The notes: generated by a model from the sequence alone, not told the origin. DNA of 64,000 bases from Protoeuglena noctilucae (GCA_958009085.1 OY253686.1:558001-622000); one strand, 5' to 3'. Counted from the stretch's first letter, positions 8,139-60,678 are shown. A program made the numbers and translations.

Positions 8139-8563
8139 TTCCGCGGTCCCAGCGCGAGAGCAGGGGCTCTGCGGGTCCCTTCAGCGCGATATCTACGAGT
8201 ACTTCTACGCCAAGCTCACGTCATGGCCCAGAAGGGGCCCGCGCGGAGGAAGCTGCTCGGGCCCTAGCCGCCGCCCTGAGAGGCCCCGACGCTGGGCGAC
8301 GACGGCGACGATGGACCCAGCGCGCCCTGCCCCTGGGTACCGAGACACGAAATGAGCTCGTAGAAAGCGTCGGGAGCGAAGAATTGCCGAGGCTCCCGAG
8401 CCAGGGGTTGAGTCATGGTCAGACTGGCGCAGCAACCCGCCCAGCCCCGATGAGGCGGTCCCGGTCGCCGTCCCCTGTGTATTATTCGAAGGCATATCTG
8501 TGGCGTGCGCTCCTCGCGCGTAAGGAGTGACTTTGCACGCGGTCGCCGCCTGCTCCCTGCGAG

Positions 8564-28800: not shown

Positions 28801-30292
28801 CCCGGCTTGACGCGTTACCGGGAGTTCCGCTTCCACCCCTCGCTGTCCAAGGCGAGGCGCTTCTACCCCCACGCCCACAACCTGGACGGCTTCTTCGTAT
28901 GCAAGCTCAAGAAGATCAGGTGAGGGATGGAAACACAGAGACAAATGGTTGTAGTACATGCAAGCTCATGAAGATCAGGTGAGGGAGTGCGAGTGCGGTA
29001 TAAGAGAGAGGCAGGGTGGCGATACATGTGGCAATGGGTGCGGCGGGCAGTGAGGCTGGGAACAGATGACAATTACGATCGACAGCTAGGCTATCTACAT
29101 TTATGTTGATTCTATCTCGTCGCAGCAACAAGGTCAAGACGGACAAGGAACGCGGGGCGGGGGCGGGGGTGCGTGCGGGGGCTGACAATGATGGCCATGG
29201 GGGCAGCGACGGTGGGGGGAGTGAGAGTGAGATTGATGATGGTGATATGGGGGAGGGCAGGAGGGGGCAGCGGCCGGACAGCGACGAGGATGGACCGGGT
29301 GAGTGGGGGCCTGTGTGTGTGTGTGTGTGTGTGTATGTGTGTGTGTGCCTGCCTGCCCGCCTGGTTGGTGACCATGGGAGATGGGAGCTGCGCCATATGA
29401 CTTTACGTGTATGGTGTCAATATGGTTGATAATCGATGTCAAATCGTCGTTGCGGCTGCAGGGTCGAGCGACGGGGAGGCGGCGGCGGGGGCGGTGGGGA
29501 AGCGCAAGGGCGGGGAGGGTAACAAGGGTGGGAAGGGTGGCAAAGCTGCCAAAGCTGGCAAGGGTGGCAAGGGCGCTGGGGCGGTGGGGGAGGGGGCTGG
29601 CAGCGAGGGTGGTGTCAGTGTTGCGAAGGCCAAGAAGGTGCCGAAGATTGTGAGGGAGGCGCTGGCGGAGATCGAGGCGGAGAAGGCGAGTGGAGTGGAT
29701 GAGCGTGGGGCAGCTGTTTGTGGGTGCGTGGCGTGATGACATATTGACAGCAAAAATGTCTCTGCTGTGCGCTGGATGACAGCACGTTTGTAGCTGCAAG
29801 ATGCGATGCGATGTTCATCTCACCCCTCGTGCTCTGCAGCGCGCAAAGGCCGGGGCCGCGGGGGCAGGCAAGGGCGGTGTCTCTGGCAAGGGTTCTGGCG
29901 GGCAGGTGCCAGGGAAGGGTGGCAAGGGGGCGGAGGGGGCAGGGGCTGGGAAGGGCAAGGGGGTAAGCGAGGGCAAGGGCGCTGCGAAGGCTGTGGAGAC
30001 GGGGAATGGGAAGGGGAAGGGGAGTGGCGAGGGCAAGGGTGATAAGGGTGGCAAGGCGGTGGGCATCAGTGGGGCTGGGAAGGGTGGTAATGAGGGCAAG
30101 GGCGATAAGAGTGCTTCTAAGGTTGTGGAGGCAGGGAGTGGGATGAAGAAGGGTGGCAGTGAGGGGAAGGGCGGGAAGGGTGCGGGGATGGGGGCTGCGG
30201 GTGGGGTGGCGAAAGCTGGGAACGGGGGTCAGGGGGTGCGTAAGCAGGATGGGCCTGTGGCGAAGAAAGCTAAGAGGGCTGTGAAGGGGTGA
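25828..30292 (+). CDS. NOP2: 25S rRNA cytosine-C5 methyltransferase NOP2/NSUN1 with acidic N-terminus and G/K-rich tail
   Basis: [121 protein letters not shown]. Confidence 0.95.
29313..29347. repeat. (TG)n microsatellite in a NOP2 intron
   Basis: TG run with one interruption. Confidence 0.85.
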
Positions 30293-30614: not shown

Positions 30615-33600
30615 TTACCGCCCGTAGTGCCGCTCCCTTGACCGACTTCGCACCCGCCCATCCCTGCCCCTCTCCCTGTCCCTCTCCCTATCTCTGTCTC
30701 TCTCATAGCCCCTCCCGCTCCTCTCCCTCTCCCTCTCCCTGTCATCCCGCCCCCTATCCCTATCCCTCCCACTCTCACGCTCCCTCTCCCTCTCCCTCCT
30801 ACCATCCCTATCCCTCTCCCTCTCCCTTTCCCTCCCCCTCCCGCCATCCCTCTCTTTGCCCTCACCCGCACCCCGCCCCTGCCCCTCCCCCCCACGCCCC
30901 TCCCCCATCTCCACATCCCCATCCCCACCCCCCCGCTCCCCGAACCCCACCTCCCCCTCCTCCCCGCCAGCGCCAGCGGCATTGCCAGAATCCGCCAGTC
31001 CAACCGTGTCGCCATTGGCACCCGGCTCCTGTGGCAGCCCACGATCGACGGAAATTGAACCGCAACAATTGCATCATCGGCCACAGTGGGTGTCCATATC
31101 AACTGGTGTCCGCAGGTGTCAATACATGCGCACATAACGTCGGCGGTGCCATCCATGATGAGCCCCTCCACCCACCCCCCTTTCCACCCACCTCGTTCCC
31201 CCCACCCCCCGCCTCCGCCGCCGCCTCCACCCTGGCCAGTCCCTCCATCATGTCCATGTCAGCACCCAGCGATTCGAGAAGTGAAGCAATGAACTTGCGC
31301 TGAGTGGACTGGGCATCCCGGCCGTCCGCGTCGCCCACTTGGCTGTGCATCTGCGGCAATTGGGTGGTGGGGTTGGGTTACAATAAGTGTAAGGTTGGAA
31401 GGTCCATCTGCATCGCCCACTTGGCTGTGCATCTGGGGGAAGAGTGGTGGGGTAGTCGGGTAGGGTGACAATCACAGACAAAGAGCGATTATTGGAGATA
31501 ATTGGAGTCCCCCACCACACTCCCTCCCCACTCCCCACCATCTCTCTCACATCCGCCAGCGTCACCCCATTGCTCTGCCAACACACACCCCACTATTCCC
31601 CCTCCCCCCCTTCCCTCTCACCTCCGCCAGCGTCACCCGCACCGCCTGCAGCGGCAGCTTGTTCTGGTGGAGCAGCTTGATGAGGCGCGTGCGAAGGGGT
31701 CCGTCCGCCGCTTGAAACAGCGCCGCCAGGGACAGGCACAGCTGCTGGAGGGACAGCAGGCCCGCATCCACTCTGGCGAGCAAGGGTGCGAGGAACAATA
31801 ACAACATCAAAAGCATTTGAATTAGGTGAAGGGAGTGGGACGTGGAGACATGCATGAAAACACCCCCACTCTCTCACAACCCCACCCACACCCACACCCA
31901 CCTGGCCAGCTGCCGCATCTCCTCCTCCTCCCCCTCCTCGTCCCCCTCATCGCCGTTTGCCCTCCCCGCATCGAACCTGGCCTGGGCAGCGCGGTCCTTC
32001 TCCAGATACCCCACCACCAGCTCCACCAGCCGGTCGCACTTCTCGTACTCGTTCTCCACGAACTTGGAACTGAGAAAGGGAGATATAAGAAAAAAGAGAT
32101 AACGAAAAGGAGATATTATGACGAAGTTTGACATAGTTTTACGAAGCATGTGGTTAACGAAGCATGGGTTGAGGGGATGGCAGGGTGGGTGGTGGGTCCA
32201 CAGGGTCACCCACCCAGCCATGCGTGCACAACAGCTGCTACACCGCCGCTCCCACTCGCTTCCCGCCCCGTCCCTCACCACAGCCGCTCCTTCTCCGCTC
32301 CCTCCGGCAGCTGCGAGAAGAGGTGGCCGAGCAGAGACACGGCCCGGGCCTCCAGCTCCCGCATCTGCAGCTCGCCCTCGCGGCCCCTCTCGCGGTCCAC
32401 CTTGGGCTTGCCCATGAAGGCGCCGAACTGCGAATGGGCGAGGAAAGAGAGGCGTGTTATTGTTAGAACAGAGTGCTGAGAGGCAGCTGCGGGGAGGCAG
32501 CAGCAAGCTCGGTGACAGCTGCAGCGGCAATGGCCGAGTGCCACTGCGAAGTTGTCAACCGGCGCCCAATTCTCGGATTCTGTACGCACTTGTAACATTT
32601 GCCTTGATCGGATCCCCACGTCTGTCCTCACCAGGGTCTTGAGCCCGAAGATGGTGACGAACTTGGTGCAGGCGGCGGGCGACCGCGTTAGGGCGAAGTC
32701 GATGGCCCGGAAGGCCCCGAACCCGGCCTTGCGCTTCGTCCGCAGAATAAGAAGCATCAGCTCGAGGCCTTCGGCCGCCAGGAAACGCTCCCGGTTCTGC
32801 AATGGCAGGGAGCAGACATGAGCTTAGCGCGTTGGTGTCCACAAGAAGCGAGCCGAGATACGAGTACCTGGCGCTGTCAAACTAATAGAAAATCGTGAAA
32901 TTTGCATTTGCCATCGCGCATCTCGCGCAGCGTGGCTCGAGCAACTGCACACACGCCCCTCACCTCCTGCACCATGAGCATCGAGCAGAGGGCGTCAAAG
33001 AGGTTCAGCATGTACTCCGTCTCCTCCTCCGACTTCGGGTCCTCTTTCCGGTACGCAGAGATGCTCTTGAGCAGCACGAACACGCCGTCCATCTCCCCGG
33101 CCTTGCGGCGGACGTCGTCGCTGCGGGAGAGGGACAGGGAGCGGTGAGATGACATGAAATGGTATGCTGCAAAGAATGGAGGCCACGAAACAGCTGTGTT
33201 CATGGAACAAAAGAGATGTACCCCGCGCAAAGGCATCAATCAAGTCCACAGGATGCCCCGTGACTGCACGACGCATGCTGCTCTCATCCACTCTCCGCGT
33301 GCACCCCACCTCTGCTGGAGGAGCACGGCGAGGATCTCCGAGGCGTACTGCTTGTTGGGGTCGAACCGCTTGGGCTTGAGGCGGCCCAGGATCCACGACA
33401 GGAGGTCCGTGCGCTGCACGAGATGCTCGCCCATCTGGGGCGCCAAGTCCAGGAAATTCTGCAAATGGAAACAGATGTTACATCGACACATGTTCACACG
33501 TGCCAAAGCACGTCACACGTGCCGCCAGACGCAACCCATCCACACCGCCGCTTCCGCGTTCGCATCGCCATGCCCCCGCCCCCGCCTGCCTGCACCGCCC

Positions 33601-40857: not shown

Positions 40858-43800
40858 ATGTCGGACGCGGAGGACGCGGGCCTGGACGCCCCGATCGACG
40901 GAGATTTTGACAACGCGCGGGCGGACTACGGCGACCAGGATGAGCCGCAGCTGGGCGAGGACGGGGACGACAGCCCCGCCGGCAGCGACGACGACCCGGT
41001 GAGCGCGCGCGGCGCTTCCCCGGCCCCGGAAACCCGCAGCGGAATGAGTTTACGCTTACATTTTTGGGTTCTTGACTCGCAGGACGCCGGGGAGTCGGGA
41101 GACGGCGGCGAGAGGGGTGGCCAGGGGAGCGCAGGAGATGGGAATGCCGCAGCAGAGGAGGGCGACACGCAGTTTCGCGTGCAGTTGGCGGTGAAGGAAG
41201 ACGGCGCCGTGGGCGTGGGCATCCGCACGGTGGCGGAGGTGGAGGAGGAGGAGCGGCTGAGCGCGGAGTTGGCGGCCAAGCTCGCGTGGCTAGACGAGGT
41301 GTGGGGCATGGAGGATGAGGCGGAGGGTGACATCAACCAGGCCGCCGCGGCGTCGGATGACGAGAGGGCCACGAGGGTCGACCGAGGTGAGGCCTGGTGG
41401 GGAGCTTCCCTGTTGTGTAAGGCGGCTAGCTGACTCCCAAGCATGGTGTGTTGTGTGTGGGGGGTGGCTACCTTCAGAGCTACCCTCTGCACTGTGTGTA
41501 TAGCCAGCTACCCACCCCAGAGCCCTACATGCAAATAACCTACCCCACCCCCCGCCCCTCGCCCCTCCCGCAGGGCCCCAGCCGGGCGCGAGCACCTCCG
41601 GGCGCACGCTCCCCGCCGCCGGCGCTCCGCTGAGCAAGGTCCGCGCCCGCCACGAGGCCGCTGCCAAGTACGACCGTCAGCTGGCGCGCGGGCGCCTGTT
41701 GAAGAAACTGGAGGAGGTCCGAGAGAGGGAGGGGCGCATCCGGGCCACGAGGGACGAGATGGAGGCCAAGGAGGTGAGGGGGGAAGGGAGTGGATAAGGG
41801 GATTGAATATCATGTCTGTATGCTATCTTGGTGGTGTTAGCAGTGCGGAGATGGAGGCCACGGAGGTTAGTGATTGAGTGGAGGAGGGGGTAAGGGATTG
41901 AGCATGTTTACAGATAGATACATAGATATATGTAGATTGACTGAGTAAGGATATGAGTTGCGTTGACATGGGTGTCCAGAGTATCCGATATCTCTCCTCT
42001 CTCCGCAGCGCATGATGAAGGACCTGCAGAGCCAGGTTGAGGCCTTGGAGGCGGAGGCGGACCGGCAGGCGACGGTGCAGGGGTCCCGGGACGGCCCCGC
42101 CACGCAGACGAGGCGCGACCGGATGATGCGTGCGGTGGACGATGCGTATGACAAGCTCGACGAGGCCATGGGGAGGCTGCAGGTGGGAGTGGATGGGTGG
42201 TGGGGGGTGGTATTACACTTGCGATATGCTGGTGAGAGGTGAGGCTGTGACAGGATTTGTCATGAATCGATCGCATGCCATCCAGCCAGCCAGCATCGCT
42301 CCTCCCGACACTCATCCCCTCTCACGCCCCCTCTCCCCCCCCCGCAGCAACTGCAAGAGATCCACTACGGGGAAGTCCTGGCCCGCAACGAGGCGGAAGT
42401 GGAGCTGGCGGCGTTAGAAGCCGACGCAGCAGATATCAGTGCCGACGACCCCGGCGTCACACGGGGGGGCTTACCCACAGGCAGCGTGGGGGGTGGCACC
42501 CAGGGCGCTCCGAGTGTGGGGGACGGCGTGCGTGGTTCGCACAGCGCGGTGGAGCTGGAGCTGAGCCGGGCGGACGTGGCGGTGCGGGCGTTCCACACCC
42601 GGCGCGACCGGGCGATGGCGCTGAGGAGGGGCGCGGAGAGGGAGGCGGAGGAGCAACGGTGAGGAGAATGTGGGGTTTGGTAGTGAGTGAGTTAGTGAGG
42701 GTGGCATGCGGAGAGGGAGGCGGAGGAGCAGCGGTGAGGGGGATGGGGGTGGCAGTGGAGTTGGGTGTGTGGGTGGCACAGTGAGGGTAGCAGTCACCCT
42801 AGTACCCTCACCCTCACCCTCATAACCACGTTTGCTCCCTGCAGCAAGCGCGCCGTCAACGCTGCCTGCTCCATCCCCCCTTTTTAAACCGTGCATCATC
42901 TGACGTTACCCCCCATCCCATCCCATCCCCGCAGCAAGCGCGCCGTCAACGCCGCCCGCTCCGTGCTCTCTTCTTTGATCATACACTATCCCACCTCCCT
43001 TGATCCGCCCCCCGCCACAGCAAGCGCGCCGTCAACGCCGCCCGCGCCGGCCGCCTGAAGGCCATTTTGCGCATCCGCGAGAAGGTGGCGGAGTTGAACG
43101 AGCGTCAGCTGCCGATCAACGCTCTGAGGAACGAGCTGAAGGAGAAGCGCATCCAGGGGCTGGTCCGGCTCAAGAAGAGGTGAGTGGGGTTAATAAGTGA
43201 TGGTGGATGGAGTGATGAGTGTTGATTGATGAGTGGTGAGAATGGATTGATGAGCTGAAGGAGAAGCGCATCCAGGGCTGGTCAGGCTATGCATCTGCGT
43301 CAATGCAGTCGATGCGGTTGAGACTGCATCGCGAGTGACACAATGTAACTAACGCCGGTCACCACGTCGCCTCTCCCCTCGTCGCTCATCATCATCGCTT
43401 ATTGCTTCGTCACCAATCGCCCTCTCACCTTCACCACTCCCATCGCTCACCTCCCTCATCTCCCCGCAGCGTGGACCAGGCCTTCAGCGAGGTGCTCCGC
43501 CGCAACGAGATGCGGGAGAGGCGCCTGAGGGACCGGCTGCACCGGCAGAAGGAGGAGTTCGACGCCATGGCCGAGGGCGGGCTGAACCCTTACGAGGTGA
43601 GATGAGAGAGAGAGAGGTGGTGTGTGAATGGGAATGGTAATAGAGTGTTATTGCGGAGAGCGGGCTTAAACATAACCCATTACTAATAAATGCGTAAGCC
43701 CTCATCTGTCGATATGCTTTTCGCCCCCCCAGGTGTTCCGTCAGCGTGACATTGAGCAGAGGCTGGCTAGGAAGCAGAAGGCACTCGAGTCGAGGATCAA

Positions 43801-44899
43801 GAGGGCAGAGATGGTGCTGATGGAGCGAATGGTGAGGGGTGGTGGATGGTGATTGCAATGGATGGCCCTGAGGGAGAGCGTGGTGATCACCTAACACAGT
43901 AACACTATCCTGACTACAATACTACTTCGTAATATTGCTATGTTTCCCCCAGATCCGCGAGGACGAGATCTACAACCGCGAGACGGCTGCCAAGCGTGTC
44001 GAGGAGGAGTACAAGGAGAAGTTTCAGAAGGAGATGGGCAGGGAGGCCAAGGAGAGGAAGCTGAGGAAGTGGATGATGACGCACAACCGGACGGGTGAGA
44101 GAGGAGGTGGTGGTGGGGAAGGACAGGATGGGATGCAAAGCACAGCTGTTTACATGATCCTCTCTTTCACTTCACCCCTCGCCCTTCCCTCACCCTCTCA
44201 CCCCACCCTCACCCTCACCCTACCCCCCCCAGGCAAGGAGCTCTTGGACCCCACGGGCCGCGTCCCCGTGCACCCCTCGGAGGTTGCCATGGTCAAACCC
44301 AGCGGCTTCGGCCTGGGGGTGGCCGACGAGTACGCGCTGGAGCACGTTCGCAAGGCACACGGCCGGAACGTGCCACTGGTGGACGTGCTGCTGCCCCGGT
44401 CGTACCAGCAGCCCAAAGAGGCCGAGGAGGTCGCGGAGCTGCCGGACGACGCCGGGCCGGGCAGCCCGCGGAAACTGGCGGCGTCCGCGGCGGCGCTAGA
44501 ATCGACGTTCGGGGCGGCGGCGGCGGCGGCGGCCAAGGGCGCCAAGGGCGGGGATGCTTCGGAAAGTGACAGATTGGGACGGGATACCCTCGCGCAGCCC
44601 GAGTTCGCGCCGCTGTGGGTGGAGGAGGAGAGCCGGGAGACAAGGCGGCTGTATAAGCCCAAGCTGAGCCGGGCGGAGGTCATGAAACTGGAGGCGTTGA
44701 AGAGGCAGCACAAGGAGATGGTGCCGTCGGGGGGGAGGGCGCCGGGGGAGGTGAGGGGGTGGGCGGGGGGTTGGTGGGGTGGGAGGTGAGGGGGGCGACA
44801 CGGGTGCGGTGATGAGGTGAGGTGAGGTGGATGGCGTGGTGACGACGACCCAAGTGACGATCGTGATGGAGGGAACGGTTGCCATCTGCCTTCAGTATA

Positions 44900-44994
<95 letters not shown>

Positions 44995-47900
44995 CCAATC
45001 ACTCATCATCACTCCCATCACTCCCGTTCCCACTTACCAACCCAGGTGACGATCGTGATGAACCGGGAGTTCAAGGGCGCGGGCTTCTTGGTGACCCCCA
45101 AGGAGGTGGTCTTCCGCGACTTCGAGGTGGGCGAGACCTATCGCCAGAAGATCACTCTGACGAACGTCTTTTGGACCAAGAACACCTTTAAAGTCATGGA
45201 GATGCCGCCGGAGGTTCGAAACTTCTTTGACGTCGAGTACAGCTTCCCCGGATTGGTGTCTGCGGGCATCACCTGCGACGTCTACGTCAACTTCGAGCCG
45301 AAAAGGAACGAGGACATCGCGACGCACATCCCGATTATCACCCAAACGGGACCGGTCACCGTGCCCGTGCGATGCCTGCGCAAGCGCGCCACTTTGTCCC
45401 TGTCCGCTCCCATCGTCTATTTCCAGAAGATCACCATCGGAGAGGCGAAAGAGCAGCAGGCGCAGATCATCAACAACGGGGCATTGGCGGTGGATTTCAA
45501 ATGGGAGGTCGTGTCGATCGAATCGGCGCTCAAGGAGCCCCCGGCGGAGCAGGTGAGGGGGGGTGGGGGAGGGTTAGGTTGGGTGCATGTGGGTACGGGG
45601 GTTGTATGTATGTATGTATGTTTGTTTGTTTGTTTGTTTGCCTCACACCCCCCAAAGCGCCTGATGGAGCTCAAAGAGCCCATCATCCACCCCCTCTCAC
45701 CCCCACTCACCTTCACTCACCCCTCACCCCCTTCAGAAGAGCCTGATGGAGCTCAAAGAGCCCATCACTCACACCCTCTCACCTTCACTCACCCCCACTC
45801 ATTATCACCCTCACACCCCCTCTCACCAACATTCACCTCCACTCACCCCCCCAGAAGCGCCTGATGGAGCTCAAAGAGCGCGGCGCGGACGACTGGGCTT
45901 TAGAACGGCTCTTCAAGGAGAACATGAGCGCCGCTCGACTGAAAGAGCTTGGATTTTTACTGTCGGAATGGAAGGGGTCCGTCAAGCCCTACAGCCGCAC
46001 CTCCTTCAGCGTCAGCTTCCAGCCCCCCGGCATCGGCATTTGCACGGCCAAGCTCCGTGCTGCCTTCACGGTGCACGATGATGTCAAGGAATATATCCCC
46101 GAAGTGGAGTTGGAGCTGCGGGGCGACGCGGGGGACTTGCCGGTGGTGTGCGAGAGCCAAGTGATCGATTTGCAGTGTATGATACGGGGGCAGGCGTATA
46201 CCGTGCCATTGCGCATGGTCAATCGCAGCAGCGTGGCCATCAAGTGTTTCCTGCAGCGAAACCAGGTCATGCAGAAGTATCTGCAAGTGTACCCGGGGGT
46301 GGGGTACGTGCAAGCACACGACACGTTCGCCTTCAGCCTCAAGTTCAAGGCGAGTGGTTGTGGTGTGGGATTAACTATAAGATTGATATGATTGTTTCAC
46401 CATGTTATGTATATAGCATGATTGTTTCACCATGTTATGTATATAGCATGTCAGCCTCAAGTTCAAGGCGAGTTGGGTGGGGTGGCTGGGGTGTGTGGGA
46501 TGAGATGGAAGTACAATGATGCACTAAAGCTAGCTATATGATTATCCAGCGATGCATGAATTGTAACACTATCAGTGATGCATTCGCGGTCTCCCTGATC
46601 GACTCCCACCAACACCGTATCATTACTATGTTCCCCACCCACTACCCGCAGCCGACGTCGGAGATGCTGGACGAGATCAAGGGATTCGCCAAAGTGTCGC
46701 GTGACGGTGACGACGGTGACTTTGAGATCCCCATGCGCGTGGCGGTGCCGGACCAGGCGCTGCCGGCCACCTTCACGCTCAAGGGGAGCCTGGTGAGTGA
46801 ATGGATGATGAGAGAAGAAATAAGGTTGCTATAACTGTGATTGCTATGGCCACCTCCACGCTCAAGGGGAGCCTGGTGCGTGGGAGATGGGGGATGAGAG
46901 ATGAGACAAGGAGTAACAGTGATATAACTGTGAAGGGTATGGTTACCTTCAAGCTCACTGTTCTCTCGCTATCAACATCAATTATCATCATCGCTTACTC
47001 CCTCACCCCAGACCACCTCCGACATCCGCCTGGAGCCCACTTCGTTGGACTTTGGCGACTGCGCGCTGGGCGAGGCCACCGGCCTGCACCTGACGATGAC
47101 CAACCTGGCGCGGCTGCCCCAGAAATACGGATTCTGCAATCTGAGGAGGGGGCTGCAGGTGCAGCCCAACGACGGGTTCGGGACGCTGCTGCCGGGGCAG
47201 ACCGTGTCGTGCGTGGTGTCCTATACACCGGACATATCGGGTGAGTGATTAGGGGATTATTAATGTAGATATGTTAGATGTTGACGACGCTTGCCGTGTC
47301 GTGCGCGGTGTCCTATACACCGGACATATCGGGTGAGTTTATACAGTAGTTATAAACGGATCGATTCATAACAAACAGGCACTGTGTCGTGCGTGGTGTC
47401 GTACACGCCAGACATATCGGGTGAGACAGCGACTGGGGGAGGGTGGATATGAGTAACCATTACTCAACTTATACACTGTCTCTTGCCCCATTCCCCTCAC
47501 TCCTCACCTCTCACCCCCCCCAGGCACCCACCACTTCCCCTTGGACCTCCGCACCCTCACACCCCACCTCACCTCACACCCCCACTCAGCCCACCTCCCC
47601 GCTCACTCTCATATTTGAACCCCCCCCCCCCCCCCCCCAGGCACCCACCACTTCCCCTTAGACCTCCGCACCCTCCTGGGCCGTCACTTCGTCATCCCCT
47701 GTCGCGCCGTGGTGACTCCGTTACCCGTGCTATTCGACAAGAATAGAGTCACCATGCCCGTCACCGAAGTGGGGAGGAGCTCGCAGACATCCGTGAGATT
47801 GAGGAACCAGAGCGCCACGCACTGCTACACATTCCAGGCGAGTGTGTGGAAGAGTAGTTGTGGCTAGTATATGAATGGTTATGGAGTAGAGGTGAGGGTT

Positions 47901-50745
47901 ACAGCTGAGTACCACGCACTGCTACTCATCCCAGGCGAGGGCAGATGCAGGGGTTGTGTTGTTCTTGCTGTTGTGTAGGTTAAGAAGAGAGAGTATGCAA
48001 CTGCTACCTCACAGCCTCACCCTCACCCGCACCCCCACCCTCACCCCCACCCCTCACTTTCCCCCACCACAGTTCACCGTCCCGCTGTCTTCCCGCATCA
48101 AGGTCTCCCCCAATGTCGGCCGCCTGTCAGTCAACTCCACCATAAGAGTGGAGGTTTCCTACAGTCCTAAAGAAGAGGACTTTGGGGAGCTGGGGGAGGC
48201 GGGGATCATGAAACCTGGGGGGGAAATGAGGGGTGAGGGTGGGGGCGAGGGTGGGGATGGGGTTGGGATAGAAATGACTAAGGGGTTGGACTGTGTAGTA
48301 CTGCTGTGTTGAGTTGTTTTTAGACCAAACACATCACTGCACTGCAGCAAAGCACATCAAACACCACACCACACTCCACCCACACCCACCCCTGAACCCC
48401 TCCAGACGCCGGCAGCGAGGTGGCCCCCGGCACGGAGGACGCCCACCTGTGGGTGCAGCGGGGCGACTGGACGGTATCGTGCTTTCTGCGGGAGGAGGAG
48501 TACGTGCCCGAGGGACCCAGGCTGTCGATCAAGCCCAGCGCGGCACGGGAGATGGAGAGCTTGAAGCAGGACGCCAAGGACGCACCGGGGGTGGAGGTCA
48601 TGCCCATACACCTGCAGGTGAGGGTGGGGAGAGGGGTGGGATGGGGGTATGGGCATGCGCTTGCAGGTTAGGGGTGGGTGATGGTGGGGTGATGGTGCGG
48701 TAAGTGTCAAGGTCATGCCCAGTTACTCTCACAATTACTTCACTACTGCGGCAGCTCTTGCGCTTAGCCATTACCCTCACTGCCACCCCCACTGCCACCC
48801 TTACCCCCACCCCCACACATCCCCACCCCCTCCCCCATTCACCCCTCAGGTCGTCACGGCCGCCAAGCTCCCCGAGCTGGTCTTGGACGGCCCCGTGGAG
48901 TGGCGCCCCGAGATCGCCAGCTACCAAATGAACTTCGGGGAAGTGGCATTGGGACAACGAGTCCTCAAGAACCTCACCGTGTTCAACAACGGGCCGCGCA
49001 AGACGTTCCCAGTGTTATCGGCCCTCAATCACCGCGAGACATTCTCGGTGGTCAATCCAGCCCAGGAAATCGCCCCATTGACCGGGCACGGCCTGCTGGT
49101 GGCTTACTGCCCTGAGAAGGCGGGCAAGCACAGGGAGTTGCTGACGCTGTCCAGCAGGCACACGTCGGTGAAAGTGGCGCTGGTGGGGACGGGCATATCG
49201 CCGTCGTTCGAAGTCGACAAGGACCGGTGAGGGTGGCATGGTATGTGAGATAAGACTGTATGTGAGATGAGAGCTGTTGGTATATGTAGCAAACAAGGAC
49301 CGGTGAGGGATTGTGGGAAGTGGGTTGGGATTTATATGGTATGCGACTGAAGCCACACCTACGCCATCCATTCCACTACCGCTGCCCTCACCCTCCGCCC
49401 CTCGCAGCCCCACCACCCCTCACACCCCCTCACCACCCCACCCCTCACACCCCTTCACCCCTCACCCCACCCCTCACACCCCCTCACCACCCCCCAACCC
49501 CTCACCCCTTCCCCCCCCAGCCTGGACCTGGGCGATGTGTACCGCGGAGAGACCGCCACGGAGTCCTTCACCATCGAAAACACCTCTCCGTTCCCGCTCA
49601 AATACAAGCTGCAACTGAAGGAGGGCGCGCACACCAACATCGGCGGCACGCCCGTGTTTGTGGTGAAGCCCAGTGAGGGAACGATTCCCAGCGAGGGGGC
49701 GCAGGAGGTGGAGGTCACGTTCCTGCCGGACCATGAGTACCTGTACTTCGAGAACGTGCTGGTGAGGATGGGCGGAATGTGATGTGGTGTGATGTGCTGG
49801 TGAGGGTTTGAGTACCTGTACTTCGAGAACGTGCTGGTGAGTGGACTATGTGATGTGGTGAGGTGATGCAAGGGAGTTGACTATGAAGGGCCGTCGTGTG
49901 CGAGCGTGCTGATGAGAGAACGGTGCTGCGTGCATGTGACTAACATCGCATAACAGCCAACGTGCTCCTGTAGTCCACAAACAATCCTAACAACACTCAC
50001 CCACCTCTTCCCCCTCACTCGTCCCCCAGAGTGTGTTGGTTCCCAATCAGGAGGAGGACGTGACCGTGAGCCTGCAGGGGCGGTGCTGGGAGAAGGGCAT
50101 GTACATTATTGGGGGGGACCGAGTCACGGCGATCGAGGACCCGTTCAAGTCCAAGCAACTCGCCAAGGTGAGGGGGGGGTGGGGGTGCGGGTGGTGGTAA
50201 TCTCCAGCCCGCGATCAACCCCAGTGATATCACCCCTCACCCCTCATCTCACCACCTCACTTACCACAACCCCTCACCCCTCTCCCTCATCCCCCTCCTT
50301 GCAGTTCGAGGGCCTCAAGCCCGCCATCAACCTGACCCTCACCTTCCCGAACGAAGTCTTCCCGGGCGAAGTTTCCAAGGGGACGCTCGAAGTGGGCAAC
50401 TTGAACGCCCTAGCCGGCAAGGAGAAAGGGGACTTCCAAGTGGTCGAACTGAGCCACGCCAACAAGGAAGCGGGATGGTCCGTGTCGCCCGAAAAGGGCA
50501 CGGTCGACCCCGGCCGGCGCGTGCCCCTCACCTTCAGCTTCCGCTGCCCCGACGACCCCGGCCGGCTCAACCTGGCCTATCTGGACATGGGCGGGTGGAT
50601 CGAGGCGTCGATCGACGTGGTGTTGAAGGGAGGGTTCCCGGCACCTAAGGACGCGGGGGGTACGGTGTACCGCATCCGGGCCAGGTGCTACATCAAGCCG
50701 GCGAGGAAGAAGGCGGCCAAGAAGGGGCTCAGGTTCAAGGGGTGA
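40858..50745 (+). CDS. CFAP74: Cilia- and flagella-associated protein 74 (central pair), about 20 exons
   Basis: Coiled-coil N-terminus with GLNPYE|VFRQR, then the ASH-type domain PKEVVFRDFEVGETYRQKITLTNV...FPGLVSAGITCDVYVNFEPKRNEDI...QTGPVTVPVRC, LPQKYGF, VQPNDGFGTLLPG, and VTFLPDH. Confidence 0.88.
44904..44993. repeat. (TAA)30 microsatellite in a CFAP74 intron
   Basis: Perfect trinucleotide run. It produces the spurious poly-N/Y/I ORFs. Confidence 0.97.
46388..46450. repeat. 30-bp perfect tandem duplication in a CFAP74 intron
   Basis: ATGATTGTTTCACCATGTTATGTATATAGC occurs twice in tandem. Confidence 0.9.
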
Positions 50746-51143
50746 TGGAGTTGGGGGTGTGGTATATCAAGCCGGGCAGGGAGGGGCTCAGGTTCAAGGG
50801 GTGATAAGAGTTGGGGGGCTGGATTGCTACGTCAAGCGAGTTGAGGAGGGGTGATGTGTGTGCGGTGACTGGGGAGCGAGGGGTAGCGGTGGGTGTGGGG
50901 TTGGTATTAGGGGTGGATGTGGGGTACCGTGTTGTAACGAGCCAGGCTTTGGGTCTTTCTATAACTGGGTACCTGTGTGTTTCTCCTGCTTGCACTGTGT
51001 CGCGGGGACGAGTGCAACACACGTTTGCCATGCAGCGGCTGCCCTGCTGCACCTCGTCTCAACGAGTGCAGCCGGAACGCAGTACTAGTGCGATAGTCCG
51101 TGCTGCTCCAAAGCGTTCAAATATGATATGATCACGTCAAGGT

Positions 51144-52334
51144 TCAAATCATGTCGACGTCGACGCCGAGCCTCCACAGTCGCACCGTGCCGTCGTCCCC
51201 GCACGTCGCGAGCACGCCATCGCCGCCAGGACGCCACTGCACGCAATTCACGTCCCCGGGAGGGTGCGCTTCTGGCACGGTCGCTAGAACCTCATACCCA
51301 CCCCCGCCACTGTCCCCATCCCAGTCGCCATTGCGCCCAAACACCTTGACGCTGTTGTCCCGCGAGCACGCCGCGATGCGCCCCTTCTCGTCCATATCCA
51401 CGGCGTACACGGGGCCCCCGAAGTAGCCCTGCAAGGTAGCTGCATGGCGCCACACCCCCGCCCCGTCCGGCCGCCACACCTTCACATCCCCAGCCTCCGA
51501 ACACGTCGCCATCTCCGATCCGTCCGGACGAAAAGAAACCATCCATACCGTCGACGCGTGGCCCCCCGACGCCTGACTCAGCTCTTGCATGCGTTCCCAT
51601 CGGTCGGGCCCCGCCTCTCGCCAAAGGCTCGCGGTGTCGTCGTAGCTGCACGACGCGAGGATCTCTCCGCCCGGATGCCATTTCACGCATTTCACGTCCT
51701 GCGCGTGCGCGCCCTGCTTCACGTCGACGGCCTCATACTCCCCGCCCCCGGCGTCCTCCCAAACCCACACTGCGCGCGGAGACGCTGCGGCATGCTCGTA
51801 GTCGGTCACCGCGCGATTTAATATATGTATTCGCATCGTTACGCGCCGCTCGCCTGACTTGTCGCGGCTGCAGGTGGCCACCAGGTCGTTGCGCGGGTTG
51901 CACGCCACGCCCTTGACCTCGTTCTCGTGGCCCTCGAGCAGCCCGACCTGTTCCCACACGTCCCCGGACTGCTCCCAGACCGCCACCGTCGCATCGAAGC
52001 TCCCGGACAGCAGCCGCCGCCCGTCGCGCGTCCAGCTCACCGCCCGGACCGTCCGCGCGTGGCACTTCTCCAGCACCGCCGCGCAAGCCCACCGCCCGAA
52101 CTGCGCGTTGAAGCTCCACACGCGCACGGTTTTGTCCGCGCCGCAACTCGCCAGCTGCGACCCGTCCGGCGACCACGCCACCGCCCACACTGCAAAGAGG
52201 GTCGACGCGGGTCGATGCGCGCTGGGAGCCGTTCGCTTTGACACGCATCGCGCCGGCGATGAAAGCATCTCCGACGCACCGCAGCCCTCGTGGCCCTCCA
52301 GCGCCTGCACGAGCTCCAGCCCGCCCGCCGGCAT
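51144..52334 (-). CDS. CIAO1: Cytosolic iron-sulfur assembly WD40 protein CIA1/CIAO1, 3 exons
   Basis: LEGHEGC|VWAVAWSP, LASCGADKTVRVW, HARTVRAVSW, SFDATVAVW, LEGHENEVK, ATCSRDKS|VWVWE, HAQDVKCVKWHP, LASCSYDD, GHASTVW, AH..DVNCVQW. Confidence 0.95.
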   Translation of the reverse strand: MPAGGLELVQALEGHEGCGASEMLSSPARCVSKRTAPSAHRPASTLFAVWAVAWSPDGSQLASCGADKTVRVWSFNAQFGRWACAAVLEKCHARTVRAVSWTRDGRRLLSGSFDATVAVWEQSGDVWEQVGLLEGHENEVKGVACNPRNDLVATCSRDKSGERRVTMRIHILNRAVTDYEHAAASPRAVWVWEDAGGGEYEAVDVKQGAHAQDVKCVKWHPGGEILASCSYDDTASLWREAGPDRWERMQELSQASGGHASTVWMVSFRPDGSEMATCSEAGDVKVWRPDGAGVWRHAATLQGYFGGPVYAVDMDEKGRIAACSRDNSVKVFGRNGDWDGDSGGGGYEVLATVPEAHPPGDVNCVQWRPGGDGVLATCGDDGTVRLWRLGVDVDMI

Positions 52335-52822
52335 GTGCGCTCCCCGGCGCTGCCCCGAGGAGTCTCTCGGCGGAAACACCAATCTCCACCGCCAGTCGCG
52401 ATGGCATAGGGTGGTTTCACATGCCCGCGTTGGCGAGCATGTCTTCCCTATAGCGATGCACTCGTGTCTGACCACCGGCACTCTGCCACTGGCGATCCCA
52501 GACGTGGCCTTGAGGGCCCGCGCGCTGTCACCGCACTCGGACAGTCACGTGGTAGTCGTCACAGCCGGCATCGAGGAGATCGCCTCTTCGCACGACCGCA
52601 CCGGGTGAGCGTGCCTTGGCTCCCGCATTTCAGCCGCGCGCGCGCCTTTCGTTCGTCGATACAGAGTCCCTCGTTTGCGTCGGAGTTATTTGTGGCCGGT
52701 GCGGTACTTGGAACTCCCCGAGATCCCCTCCACGCGCGCGCTGCGGGCTCGTCGTCTCAACGGCCCTCGTCGCAGCGCAGGCGGCCATCCCCGCGCGCGC
52801 TCCCGGCATCCTCGCGGCGGTC

Positions 52823-56600: not shown

Positions 56601-57823
56601 TCAGAGGTGGGCTACGCGGGGTGCCTCTCCGTGCCTCGTGTCGTGACGGTGCTGGACGGCAGACTTCACCAGGAGCCACTGCCAGAACTGAAGCGGCTGA
56701 GGAGGGGGCAGGGGTGGTACGCGTCGTGGGTGGACGTCAGCCCGGAGCAGCCCGTGGTGAGTTGTAAGGGTGGGCGGATGTGATCAGAGATAGTGAATGC
56801 GCGTGATGAGGGATGGGGGTGGTTGATGCGTGTCGTTCAGTGCACCCCAGCACAACTGTCTTCCCCTGCCACGTCCCTCCCCATCGAGCGCGACTCTGTA
56901 TTGCTAGCATCCCGTCCAGCATCGCCTCTACAACCACGTCACTTCCTTTCCCTACCCTCCACCGCAGCCCGTGGAGCGTGTCTCCGGCCGTGCCTTAGAC
57001 ATCGAAGTCATCATCGACCGGGGCCAGGCGTCCGCGGCGGGGCTGCTGTTCAACTCTTTCAGGCGAGCACGCGTGGGACAATGTCACCGAGGCACCATGC
57101 AACGCTGTGCAGTGGCACGGCAGCACGGCATCCGTGGGTCATATCGAGTGGGTCATACCGAGGGTTATACCGAGCAACCGTCATGGTCACGCATCGCATC
57201 CTTTGACCACGCCCATTGCACGTCTTTCATCCGCCACCGCTTCCCTCCTGTCCTTCGTGTCCCTCCCATCCCATCCCCGCTGCCCTGGTCTCCCCGCTCG
57301 CAGTGACGACTGCGGCAGTGCCGTGGTGGTCTACGATTGGGACCGAGCGATGCTGGAAGTCATATTCGAGGTGCCGCCGAGAGATGCCGAGGCACCGGGG
57401 CAGATCGCCAAGAGGGTGGGGGGACCGGTGGAAGGTGAGAGACGCTGCATTGGGCGGTGAGCATGTGGGCCGGTGGAAGGTGAGAGGTGCTCCTGGGGTG
57501 GTTGTTGACTGGCTGTCGAGCACTGGGGCAGATAGCGACCAAAGGTTGTGGTTCGCTCAACCCTGCGCCCCACCCACCCACTCATCGCCCCCACCCCTCC
57601 AGTGGGAGAGGACGAGCCAGTCAAGCTGCGCGTGCTGATCGACCACTCCTGCGTGGAGATCTACGAGAGCGCGGGACACGTGCTCTCCACGCGCATCTAC
57701 CGGGGCCGCCAGGGGCCCCTGGAGCCAGGAGCGGCCTTGGGCATCGAGTTCGTGGCCTACGGCGGCACGGCGCATCTCGTGCGCGTCGAGGCGTGGGAGA
57801 TGGGCACGTCGTGGGAGAACTGA
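53688..57823 (+). CDS. Glycoside hydrolase family 32 beta-fructofuranosidase (invertase), about 11 exons, no signal peptide
   Basis: [63 protein letters not shown]...[34 protein letters not shown]. Confidence 0.93.
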
Positions 57824-58333: not shown

Positions 58334-60029
58334 ATGTCGGAAGCTATGAGTCTGGTGACGATGTCAGAGACCCAGCGGATGGCTCCACGCATCGGTGAGG
58401 CGAGCGACGAGGGCGGGCTGAGTGACCGCACGCAGGGTGCACGCCCGCGTCGTCGCAACGCGCATGTGTTGCTCGTTCTCGCAGGGTGGGGCGACCTGCC
58501 CGGGGAGCTGCATCGCGAGATCCTGCGGCTAGTGCCCCTGCGCGACGCGACGGCGGCGCGGGGGTTGTCGCAGGAGATGCGCGACGAGGTGGACGAAGTG
58601 TGGAGGGCGTGGGGCATCCGAGCGTCCGCGGCGGACTTGCGGACGAAGATCCGGTCGGACTTCATCGAGGATACGAAGAGCAACACCTGTAGCCCTCGAC
58701 CTGAGGTCGACGGAGGCCCGCTTGCGGTGTACGCGTCCGGCGGGTCCCACGCGCACCACCTGGCGAGCATGGGGCTCGGGTGGCTGGCGCTGGTGGTGGT
58801 GCGGGAGGCGGGGGAAGCTGACCAGCTCGTGGGGCTGGTCGGATCCCGCGCAGTCCCCGCTAACATTGCTGGGGCGGGCGCGGAGGCCGGTGGGGCGCGG
58901 GGCGGACAGCAAGGTGGCGTGGGCGTACGCGCTGGGGGACGAGGAGTTGGCGCGGCTGGTGCGGGTGGCGGCGGGGATGGGGGCTGACGTGAGCCGTCAG
59001 CTGGGCGAGGCGTGGTCTCCGTTGTCGATCTGCGCGGCGCGGGGGTTCCTGGCCGCTGTCAAGACATGCCTGGCGGTGGGGGCGGGTGTGGAATTGCGTC
59101 GGGCCAGGGGGTGGCGAGCGCTCATGTCCGCCGCGCACGGGGGTTACGAGGCGGTGGTGGAGGCGCTGCTGGAGGCGGGGCCGTCGGCCCAGGCTCCCCG
59201 TCTGCTGGCTACAGCATGCAGGGGAATTACGACCCCGGGCATCGTGAGGCGGCTGGTGAAGGCGCGGGCGAACGTCAATGACCGTCACGAGTCTGGGACG
59301 GCGCTGTATCACGCCACGCTCCGCAACAACCTTGCCGTGATGGAGGCCCTGGTGGATCTGGGGGCCGACGTGGTGGGTGCGGGCAAGGGGGGGTCGACGC
59401 CGCTGCACGTGGCGGCGGATGGGGAGGCGGTGCGATGGCTGGTAGCGCGCGGGGCGAGCATCCAGGGCAACGGGGTTGATGAGTCCCCTCTGCTCCGTGC
59501 CTGCCGTGAGGGGCGCATCGACGCCGTCCGCGCTCTGGTGGAGCTGGGTGCGGACCCCCGTGACAGGGACTGGTTCAGTTGCACGCCTCTCCACAAGGCG
59601 GTGTGCCTGGCGGATGAGCGGGTGGCTGTGGAGCTGACGCGGCTGCTGCTGGCGGCAGGGGCCGACCCCAATGCCGTGGATGCGGAGGGCCGCACGCCCC
59701 TGCACTGCGTGCAGCACGGTGCATGCGCGGACCTGCTGCTGGACGCCGGGGCAGACGCAGAGGAGCGGGACAGGGACGGCAAGACTGCCATCTGCGCTGC
59801 TGCGACGGAGGATCGGCGGGAGGCGGCGCTGCAGTTGGCCAGCCGGGGCGCAGAGCACGCCGACAGTGACGCGCTGCTGTGGGTCGTGGACAGCGTCGTG
59901 CAATCTCTGCGGGCCAACGGCAGCGGGCAGCCGGCTGGGAGCTGTCTGGGGCGGACGGCAAAGGCCATGGCGAGGTTTAAGGCTCTCAGGAAACGGCGTG
60001 CCAGGGAACAACACGGTGCCAATCGCTGA
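58334..60029 (+). CDS. F-box-like domain plus ankyrin-repeat protein. Frame discontinuity near 58730-58850 (cryptic intron or frameshift).
   Basis: WGDLPGELHREILRLVPLRDA is F-box-like and follows an intron at about 58396-58484. Ankyrin repeats GTALYHA, STPLHVAA, SPLLRAC, TPLHKAV and RTPLHCV lie in a different frame (58722-60029). Confidence 0.7.
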
Positions 60030-60259: not shown

Positions 60260-60678
60260 TGGTCCGCCAAACGCCCCTGCACTGTGCTCGGAACGCTGCT
60301 TGCATGGAACAGCTGTTGGTGGCGGGGGCGGATGCCCGGGTTGTTGATGCGGAAGGCTGCACGCCCCTGCACGGTGTTCTCGATGTTGCTTGCGTGGACA
60401 TGCTGCTGGATGCTGGGACGGATCTGGAGGCGCGGGACACGGAAGACATGACTGCTATCTGCGTCGCAGCCTGTGATTTGCTTGGTATACCAGAGGCGGT
60501 GCTGCGGCTGGCCGACCGCGGTGTGGACCTATTCGACACGGGCGGGGAGCCGGGGTTGGTGGAGCGGCGGGTAGAGAGGCTGCGGGCGCTCCGTGCCAGC
60601 GGGCAACGGGAGCCGGACGTCTTCGACCGCATGGTTGCGCTTCTTGACGACGAAAGCAACAGCAGCGAGGGAGACTAA
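60260..60678 (+). pseudogene. Diverged ankyrin-repeat fragment paralogous to the C-terminus of the upstream gene
   Basis: QTPLHCARNAACMEQLLVAGAD...DAEGCTPLHGVLDVACVDMLLDAGTDLEARDTEDMTAICVAA parallels DAEGRTPLHCVQHGACADLLLDAGADAEERDRDGKTAICAAA upstream. No N-terminal part is present. Confidence 0.6.

Follow-up and report, generated by a model that had tools for sequence, protein, structure and literature searches.

Direct copies of exon ends and splice sites inside the introns of a CFAP74 gene of Protoeuglena noctilucae

A repeat array that starts at a splice junction has been described in human F7. Intron 7 of this gene contains a 37-bp minisatellite, a variable number of tandem repeats (VNTR), the first unit of which spans the boundary of exon 7 and intron 7. 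The pseudo-donors in this array are identical and functional, yet remain silent because splicing selects the donor that lies furthest upstream (PMC1557585). Models of intron birth start from a duplicated exon segment with an AG/GT motif. The resulting intron is predicted to carry the upstream exon end at its 3′ end and the downstream exon start at its 5′ end, and to have the length of one unit (PMC2891723). Introners are repeated elements with duplications of 3-9 bp at both ends (PMC9860276). In green algae, tandem repeats are enriched near intron ends (PMC3887541). A further arrangement was observed in a 64,000-nt stretch of Protoeuglena noctilucae DNA (GCA_958009085.1, OY253686.1:558001-622000; the window in the following). 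Introns of a gene for a cilia- and flagella-associated protein 74 (CFAP74) contain direct copies of their own flanking exon ends, in many cases together with the splice site.

Local direct repeats were collected within the 64-kb window with an offset of 30-300, a length of at least 18 nt, an exact seed of 11 nt and a dinucleotide entropy of at least 2.7. The scan yielded 30 pairs of complex repeats in the window and none in each of ten block-shuffled copies. Offsets starting from 400, 700, 1000, 2000, 5000 and 10000 gave 3, 0, 0, 0, 1 and 0 pairs, respectively. Inverted repeats under the same criteria were absent window-wide. A self-BLAST of the window reported 19 near hits, all of them direct, and just two distant hits, both unrelated to the copies. 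The 9 kb of CFAP74 hold 19 of the 30 pairs. Among the 11 pairs outside CFAP74, nine were read as exon-end copies at predicted introns of other genes, on both strands. The pair at 7406/7441 looks similar, but has no adjoining predicted intron. The repeat at 30029 is the only one of the 30 inside a coding region. The tally of exon-to-intron copies reached 28, comprising 18 donor-side and nine acceptor-side copies and one at a stop codon; three of these are weaker and were recovered by local alignment alone. Every pair listed in an initial annotation of the sequence was recovered in place or within a few bases, and its count of at least 27 such echoes agrees with this tally.

The predicted CFAP74 coding region (41582-50745, plus strand) comprises 19 exons and 18 introns and represents the larger part of the protein; the gene extends further upstream of 41582. 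The exon chain was obtained with a dynamic program using splice sites and codon usage, and was curated by merging one doubtful split and dropping two false mini-exons. The frame from this program is continuous to the stop codon at 50743-50745, and the junctions are partly confirmed by RNA contigs. For exon 45046-45552, matches named cilia- and flagella-associated protein 74 show 29-36% identity. G is the last base of all 18 upstream exons. Two introns have GC-AG boundaries with GCGAG donors, at 46350 and 47838, and the GC donor is kept in their intronic copies. Each CFAP74 intron was aligned to the last 60 nt of all upstream exons and to the first 60 nt of all downstream exons. The intron's own flanking exon end outscored all 306 mismatched exon/intron pairs per side in 13 of the 18 introns (11 donor-side, 5 acceptor-side). 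Two further introns hold weaker or decayed copies, at 48638-48673 and 50202-50220. The comparison with mismatched pairs had been proposed genome-wide in the initial annotation and, run inside CFAP74, bore out its observation of such copies.

Assembly or the merging of haplotypes might also create such copies, and short-read contigs do break at the longest exact copies, which marks these regions as hard to assemble. The window stretch is also present in runs of one labelled organism, in marine metagenomes and in metatranscriptomes. Contigs of a marine metagenome (X5), from a study other than that of the best-matching run (X1), match 41500-44770, 45002-45594, 45651-46417, 46421-47244, 47637-48006, 48823-49411 and 49812-51100 with 0 differences and reproduce most of the copies. 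X1 contigs end and start at 46417/46421, 47244/47217-47336/47309 and 49763/49812, while X5 contigs end at 46417/46421, 47244 and 49812. Exact repeats are as long as the assembly word at these positions, and such breaks are expected of real repeats in a word-graph assembler. X1 contig 47217-47336 bridges a copy, a spacer and the next copy. An artefact, raised as a possible refutation in the initial annotation, is scarcely conceivable on these data. The exon-end copies are confirmed; chance is excluded, and the copies are not a product of assembly. Unit-sized gain or loss of copies was not observed among the contigs examined for four runs, which are ill-suited to reveal rare alleles. Contig joints listed as possible variants have sides of 18-27 nt in low-complexity arms and were taken as spurious.

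All copies in CFAP74 are on the plus strand. Donor-side copies lie downstream of the original. The copy at 41848-41867 repeats 41756-41775 (19/20, 92 nt away) with the site weakened to GTTAG. At 42708-42739, segment 42633-42664 recurs after 75 nt (31/32) with an intact donor, and the spacer is homologous too. Exon segment 43133-43158 is repeated at 43252-43277 (26/26, 119 nt), junction not included. A GC donor is included in the copies at 46451-46473, identical to 46333-46355 (23/23, 118 nt), and at 47912-47939, derived from 47815-47842 (26/28, 97 nt). Segment 46765-46795 has a copy at 46848-46878 (30/31, 83 nt), in which the site has been weakened to GTGCG; here the spacer shows homology as well (31/41), and a third, partial copy begins near 46941. 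Two copies, 47294-47338 and 47384-47425, follow 47202-47246, both with intact donors. They match at 44/45 and with an identity of 0.90 over 42 nt, respectively, at a spacing of 92 and 88 nt, so that the second is 180 nt from the original; the spacers are not alignable. A decayed copy of 48588-48624 is located at 48638-48673, 50 nt downstream (28/37 alignment columns, one gap). The donor in the copy of 49217-49233 at 49293-49309 (17/17, 76 nt) equals the authentic donor. Segment 49734-49766 is repeated at 49809-49841 (33/33, 75 nt) with a partly homologous spacer, and a weak third copy occurs at 49884 (64%).

Acceptor-side copies lie upstream of the original. Segment 43018-43045 is preceded by copies at 42842-42872 (21/21) and 42932-42959 (28/28), spaced at 90 and 86 nt, both of which keep the CAG. 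The copy of 45040-45060 at 44848-44868 (20/21) has CAG changed to CAA and is 192 nt away, including an (AAT)n run. Two copies with homologous spacers, 45642-45679 and 45734-45761, belong to 45842-45879. The first shows an identity of 0.92 over 38 nt, the second matches at 27/28 (45734 versus 45852), and the units measure 82 and 118 nt. Tandem Repeats Finder (TRF) describes 45641-45801 as a repeat of period 82 with 2.0 copies and 85% matches. Segment 47631-47675 recurs 117 nt upstream at 47514-47558 (44/45) with intact CAG. A copy of exon segment 50314-50332 at 50202-50220 (17/19, 112 nt upstream) does not include the junction. The remaining case concerns the stop codon. In the 3′ untranslated region, 50759-50805 repeats the last codons together with the stop codon: 50782-50805 equals 50723-50746 (24/24), 50759-50783 resembles 50685-50709 at 80%, and homology flanks both sides.

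Adjacent copies are spaced at 44-132 nt; the exception, 192 nt, contains the (AAT)n run of approximately 97 nt. Copies are 17-45 nt long, and their exon-derived part is 88-100% identical. The donor-side piece comprises 10-39 exon bases and, in 14 of 18 copies, the first 2-20 intron bases, mostly 2-8 nt. The junction is not copied in the other four, which end 9-29 nt short, and in one acceptor-side copy. The splice consensus is kept as G[T/C]GAG in 11 of 14 copied donors and as CAG in six of eight copied acceptors, so that the seeding of decoy sites, as initially suggested, was confirmed. The copy distance is divisible by three in 8 of 27 cases; this lack of an excess is expected of untranslated sequence. 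A decay series runs from 33/33 down to 28/37 columns, with the partial copy near 46941 and the 64% copy at 49884 as further members.

The introns themselves are polar in composition. Across all 18 CFAP74 introns (41774-50304), the first tenth contains 54% G and 2% C, the last tenth 57% C and 9% G. TRF returned 36 rows in 9.6 kb, where overlapping rows may describe one array. All but three are placed wholly within introns; two exceptions are exonic, at 44513 and 50343, and the third, 44744-44795, spans the junction of exon 8 and intron 8. Intron 8 includes an uninterrupted (AAT)n run with some 32 units (44897-44993), and intron 9 a (TTGT)n run (45602-45640). Hairpins specific to single introns were considered and rejected. 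Fourteen of the 18 introns fold more stably than shuffles (z of about -2 to -5.5), but this is due only to the pairing of G-rich 5′ arms with C-rich 3′ arms of whichever intron. The mean complementarity of an intron's own 5′ and 3′ arms is 8.7, compared with 9.0 for arms of different introns, and one of 18 introns exceeds the 95th percentile.

The closest match among described systems is F7 intron 7 (PMC1557585). Here as there, the outer repeat unit holds the exon end and the donor, and near-identical donors follow downstream. In F7 the authentic donor is chosen, and the RNA contigs examined here show authentic donors too. With regard to head-to-tail units of this type, the junction lies within 14 of the 18 donor-side copies and the spacing within arrays is regular (75/75, 92/88 and 90/86 nt, beside 83/93 and 82/118 nt in two others), but spacer homology was found in only 4 of 24 arrays. 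The differences are of extent and form. F7 has one affected intron with a homogeneous 37-bp array; here, units of 44-132 nt occur in 13 of the 18 introns of a single gene and in further introns in the vicinity. One or two extra copies are present, the spacers are mostly diverged, and acceptor-side and stop-codon versions occur as well. Intron gain by tandem duplication is similar in that a splice site is doubled by a local duplication, after which use of the outer site yields the original message again (PMC2891723, PMC3265369, PMC4974935). In contrast to these models, the copy lies on the side of its source within an existing, longer intron, which corresponds to intron growth, not birth. Intron birth via a duplicated AG/GT exon segment was rejected on this geometry, namely copies on the source side and introns longer than one unit. 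The green-algal survey shares with CFAP74 the short-period repeats that fill the intron arms (PMC3887541). It counted short motifs by region and position; in the parts of its text compared here, units with exon sequence or splice sites are not mentioned.

The copies are best explained by frequent, short-range direct duplications that straddle coding/non-coding boundaries and are kept since the outermost splice site is still used; a probability of about 0.55 is given to this reading. The process would be frequent, local and direct and would act throughout the short, repeat-rich introns, leaving adjacent copies 44-132 nt apart. If a unit across a donor, an acceptor or a stop codon is duplicated, the outer copy would retain the frame and the authentic signal, and the inner copy would fall into non-coding sequence. 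Such a duplication would be nearly neutral and would survive, whereas one within an exon would be purged by selection. The exon-derived part would stay recognisable as complex sequence with an exon partner frozen by selection, while the intron-derived, slippage-prone spacer would decay fast. Every event would add one unit to the intron and leave one decoy splice site. The decoys would be silent if the splicing machinery takes the outermost site. This rule, if valid here, would also explain the excess of donor-side (18) over acceptor-side (9) copies.

Several observations argue for the duplication of boundary-straddling units. These are the strict locality and direct orientation, the regular spacing of arrays, the stop-codon case at a boundary without splicing, the homology of whole units including the spacer in some arrays, the decay series, the ubiquitous intronic tandem repeats and the size steps of introns. 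Copy-free introns of CFAP74 are 121-173 nt long, and copy-bearing ones 219-400 nt. Subtraction of the units from copy-bearing introns leaves roughly 100-220 nt by our own arithmetic, mostly in or near the copy-free range. Window-wide, with heuristic introns included, the median intron length is 204.5 nt without and 271 nt with a copy (Mann-Whitney p = 0.02). Of the recurrent process that the initial annotation saw building the introns, the local direct duplication and the stepwise increase in length are thus supported, but a process targeted to junctions is not.

Junction specificity had been overstated. The same event occurred at a stop codon, the introns are full of short tandem repeats, and 4 of 18 donor-side copies lack the junction. 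The copies are specific for splice junctions only partly, if at all. The apparent specificity is probably due largely to filtering by selection and detectability, not to targeting. Base introns measure about 100-170 nt and the copy distance is about 45-130 nt, so that a tolerated intronic destination draws either on the neighbouring exon or on the low-complexity arm. Duplicates of the low-complexity arm are hard to detect. Geometry, selection and detectability together can therefore mimic junction specificity.

The spacers between copies were compared with their predicted counterparts, using comparable regions of other introns as control. Homology exceeded the 95th percentile of unrelated introns in 4 of 24 arrays, those at 42633, 46765, 49734 and 45734. 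Against shuffles, 8 of 25 arrays, in the author's reading, scored at a level of at most 3/300 on the side predicted by whole-unit duplication. Shuffles overstate spacer homology and unrelated introns are the fairer control, which reduces 8/25 to 4/24. The initial description of the copies as not simply tandem, with unrelated spacers, does not hold throughout. Several arrays are degenerate tandem repeats, and the spacers are homologous in at least four arrays; the TRF repeat of period 82 is a further indication.

A number of results weigh against boundary-straddling duplication as the whole explanation. For 20 of the 24 arrays, similarity between the spacer and its predicted copy does not exceed that of unrelated introns, although the exon part is 88-100% identical. 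The pair at 47202/47294 is identical at 44 of 45 positions, yet its spacers of 47 and 43 nt fail to align. Plain duplication of whole units with uniform decay cannot yield near-identical exon parts next to unalignable spacers. Where spacers can be aligned, they are 71-79% identical. In the three aligned donor arrays, differences occur at 2 of 96 exon-derived positions and at 27 of 108 spacer positions, and by rough estimate this contrast exceeds the twofold effect of freezing one copy. The gap could be closed by slippage turnover in the spacers, error-prone repair of the spacers, conversion by the exon, or insertion of the exon piece alone. With uniform placement, exon sequence should account for the greater share of the unit in about half of the cases; this was found in only 2 of 18 donor-side cases. 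CFAP74 is far richer in copies than its neighbours, which a uniform neutral process does not predict. Complex mid-intron or intergenic duplicates of comparable unit size were not found in the window except for 46388-46447, although the short introns give this search little power. This exact 30-nt tandem duplication in the middle of intron 10 is the sole complex duplicate seen without exon sequence, and short-read contigs break there. Filter geometry leaves both the minor exon share (16 of 18) and the density in CFAP74 unexplained.

The density was compared at a threshold of the 99.9th percentile of mismatched pairs. Copies occur in 11 of 18 CFAP74 introns and in 8 of 47 predicted introns elsewhere (Fisher p = 0.0015), a weak comparison, since the 47 introns are rough predictions. 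Within this limit, the designation of CFAP74 as a hotspot was upheld. A window-wide exon chain without gene boundaries had run as a single "gene" of 195 exons; it was discarded and replaced by a heuristic intron list. This list mis-joins some CFAP74 introns, and its 47 introns outside CFAP74 are approximate.

Breakage and repair associated with the boundary might copy only the exon-end segment into the intron at a characteristic distance, with the original intron or filler as spacer. Candidate routes are filler-DNA fill-in of staggered breaks or templated synthesis from a nearby flank, perhaps provoked by the G-rich 5′ and C-rich 3′ arms, whose extreme composition suits this explanation. The near-identical copies with non-homologous spacers in 20 of 24 arrays point in this direction, as do the mostly minor exon share of the unit (more than half in 2 of 18) and the narrow band of distances (44-132 nt). 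Taken together, the spacers of 47 and 43 nt in the 47202 array have the length of a single typical spacer, as would be expected if the middle copy had entered it by insertion. Whole-unit duplication in at least four arrays and at the stop codon is at odds with this route, and the similar spacer lengths within arrays (47/43, 53/58 and 42/42 nt) suit unit duplication better than independent insertions. Flank-templated end-joining repair of the polymerase theta type yields copies in both orientations with microhomology at the borders. All 30 repeat pairs are direct and none is inverted, but inverted copies could form hairpins with the exon end and might have been lost to selection for this reason. 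Microhomology was not seen at the copy borders in the flanks examined, and four donor-side copies end 9-29 nt off the junction. Copying of the exon end alone by repair is regarded as unlikely. The evidence is mixed between tandem duplication of whole units and insertion of exon pieces.

Active maintenance would offer another reason for the contrast between exon parts and spacers. Intronic copies would be kept exon-like by short-tract gene conversion or by selection for a role in splicing, e.g. as extra landing sites for the machinery that recognises the 5′ splice site. The conservation of the exon part beyond the twofold frozen-copy effect (2/96 versus 27/108 differing positions) is in line with this, and conservation often stops a few bases beyond the splice consensus. 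The copies do decay (28/37 at 48638, partial near 46941, 64% at 49884), which argues against strong selection on them. Three of the 14 copied donors and two of the eight copied acceptors no longer show the consensus, the junction is missing from four copies, and for conversion the homologous tracts (17-45 nt) are short. To our knowledge, no function of an intronic copy of its own exon is known. Maintenance of this kind is judged quite improbable. A directional variant has been considered, in which copying tied to the coding boundary would place the exon end together with its splice site at a depth of about 45-130 nt in the intron, with the copy refreshed from the exon, as the main engine of lineage-specific intron growth. 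A candidate cause would be breakage of the G-rich and C-rich intron arms in the course of transcription or splicing. This variant is regarded as improbable, though worth stating for its consequences.

The closest relative of the protein found is encoded on a metagenome contig with a GC content of 69%. Its identity is 78% for the query exon and varies from exon to exon within 39-87%. All 19 exons of the window map to this contig head to tail and in one frame, in a single open reading frame at 3389-8929. None of the 18 CFAP74 introns is present, which fits a gain in the window lineage or a loss in the relative. Local repeats by the scan criteria were not detected in the 12 kb of this contig, and other long genes on this locus also appear uninterrupted. 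A protein of 1709 residues on another metagenome contig does not differ from it in identity to, or coverage of, the query exon; both probably represent one gene.

The relative without introns brings introners into consideration, since the window lineage may have gained many introns. Like introners, the copies are short direct repeats tied to introns in marine algae, and the introns are lineage-specific and absent from a relative (PMC9860276, PMC3879977). The spacers would then be inserted introner-like mobile elements and the exon-end copies their target-site duplications; the layout of copy, spacer and copy is formally like that around an insert. In contrast to introners, the copies are internal to the intron, and their 17-45 nt compare with 3-9 bp for known introner duplications (PMC9860276). 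The second copy lies 44-132 nt from the first and not at the far intron end. In four cases, the spacer includes the last 9-29 coding bases, which are contiguous on the uninterrupted frame of the relative. A sequence family among spacers or introns was not evident within the 64-kb window, where neither of the two distant BLAST hits involves them, and an intron's own arms are no more complementary than those of different introns (8.7 versus 9.0). An insertion of introners or transposons was therefore rejected for the absence of a repeat family within the 64 kb and of terminal inverted repeats in the own arms, and for the wrong size and placement of the duplication; it is considered very improbable.

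Authentic splice sites are used in the RNA contigs. Record 29 of RNA contig set X9 joins 48614 to 48847 and 49225 to 49520, and exits the next exon at 49760. A stretch of 137 letters, in keeping with the 138-nt exon 50030-50167, precedes its continuation at 50303. Loose ends of RNA contigs indicate 42182 to 42348 and the authentic acceptor at 45045. Authentic junctions or ends are thereby available for the introns at 42183, 44751, 48618, 49227 and 49762, from contigs that drop rare variants. Intact decoy donors at 49303 and 49837 lie in two introns whose authentic sites are used in these contigs. Use of decoys was not seen in the RNA contigs examined, among which the other copy-bearing introns had no spliced contig and minor use is possible. 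RNA contigs of a further set (X10) read through introns, e.g. 42560-42909. They may represent unspliced RNA or carry-over of DNA and were excluded as evidence. Decoy use, splice-site sliding and intron gain, suggested initially as consequences, find no support here, where the RNA contigs show authentic sites. Two intronic copies, 46447-46467 (21 nt) and 47379-47420 (42 nt), are located between a usable AG and a donor and were spliced in by a simple exon finder. These predicted mini-exons are in frame and repeat the preceding peptide.

Copies in other genes of the window resemble those in CFAP74. The minus strand of 1-7300 encodes the largest subunit of RNA polymerase I, for which the best named matches are all from green algae and plants, with at most 62% identity. 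In its predicted intron 562-764, a copy of exon segment 794-814 lies at 673-693 (20/21, minus strand). Predicted intron 1657-1931 contains two copies within 1730-1845 on the same strand, an acceptor-side copy at 1730-1758 of 1632-1660 (27/29) and a donor-side exon copy at 1818-1845 of 1950-1977 (26/28). Donor-side copies on the minus strand also occur at 3055-3078 (of 3139-3162, 24/24, donor intact) and at 18013-18041 (of 18057-18085, 28/29, 44 nt away, site weakened to GTGCG). On the plus strand, exon segment 27130-27156 is repeated without the junction at 27198-27224 (25/27, 68 nt downstream). Donor-side copies with intact donors are found at 28958-28986 (of 28899-28927, 28/29, 59 nt downstream) and at 57467-57486 (of 57422-57441, 19/20, 45 nt downstream), both on the plus strand. 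Predicted intron 31351-31621 (minus strand) carries two copies within 31413-31567, acceptor-side at 31413-31435 of 31331-31353 (23/23) and donor-side at 31531-31567 of 31602-31638 (33/37).

The window is eukaryotic DNA with a GC content of 55-70% (2-kb steps) and genes split by numerous short introns. By its matches, it was assigned to a marine alga of the green lineage. A pelagophyte, Micromonas, Chloropicon and Pseudoscourfieldia were considered as the source and rejected: published intron densities amount to about 0.2-0.7 per gene for three of these, few resident introns are described for Micromonas, and a gene with 18 introns in 9 kb suits none of the four. An open frame of 466 residues at 51144-52544 (minus strand) encodes WD40 repeats, with THOC3- and Prp19-like propellers as best named families. 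It is apparently uninterrupted, while its neighbours are rich in introns. A dispersed repeat of 152 nt (59645-59796 and 60312-60463, 74% identity) is located in or near an ankyrin-repeat gene (58533-60029) and probably represents repeated coding modules. A repetitive coding stretch rich in glycine and lysine at 29830-30290 contains an internal 18-nt repeat (30029 versus 30092).

A published report of boundary-spanning copies at this density was not found in the full-text literature, a search that left subscription journals and supplements largely uncovered. The initial remark that such copies are not known to be described at this density agrees with this, but as a statement of novelty it goes too far, since a single-gene precedent exists in F7 intron 7 (PMC1557585). 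Known are this single case and the general models of tandem duplication; the density and the acceptor-side and stop-codon forms set the present case apart from F7.

The locus has a practical cost. The exon finder mistook two copies for exons, and the longest copies interrupt short-read contigs; systematic errors at these places will consequently occur when such genomes are annotated and assembled. For splicing, the window represents a natural experiment on splice-site choice, as dozens of decoy donors and acceptors match the authentic sites together with their exon context. Directional copying tied to the boundary, if true, would supply ready-made mini-exons in frame, such as 46447-46467 and 47379-47420, which the exon finder could splice with the frame kept. 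Near-identical exon copies beside scrambled spacers, a contrast so far unexplained, could point to a repair pathway that leaves its own typical footprint, or else to conversion that links an exon with its intronic copy. Short introns are shown here to grow stepwise, by about 45-130 nt at a time, and the relative of this lineage lacks all of these introns.

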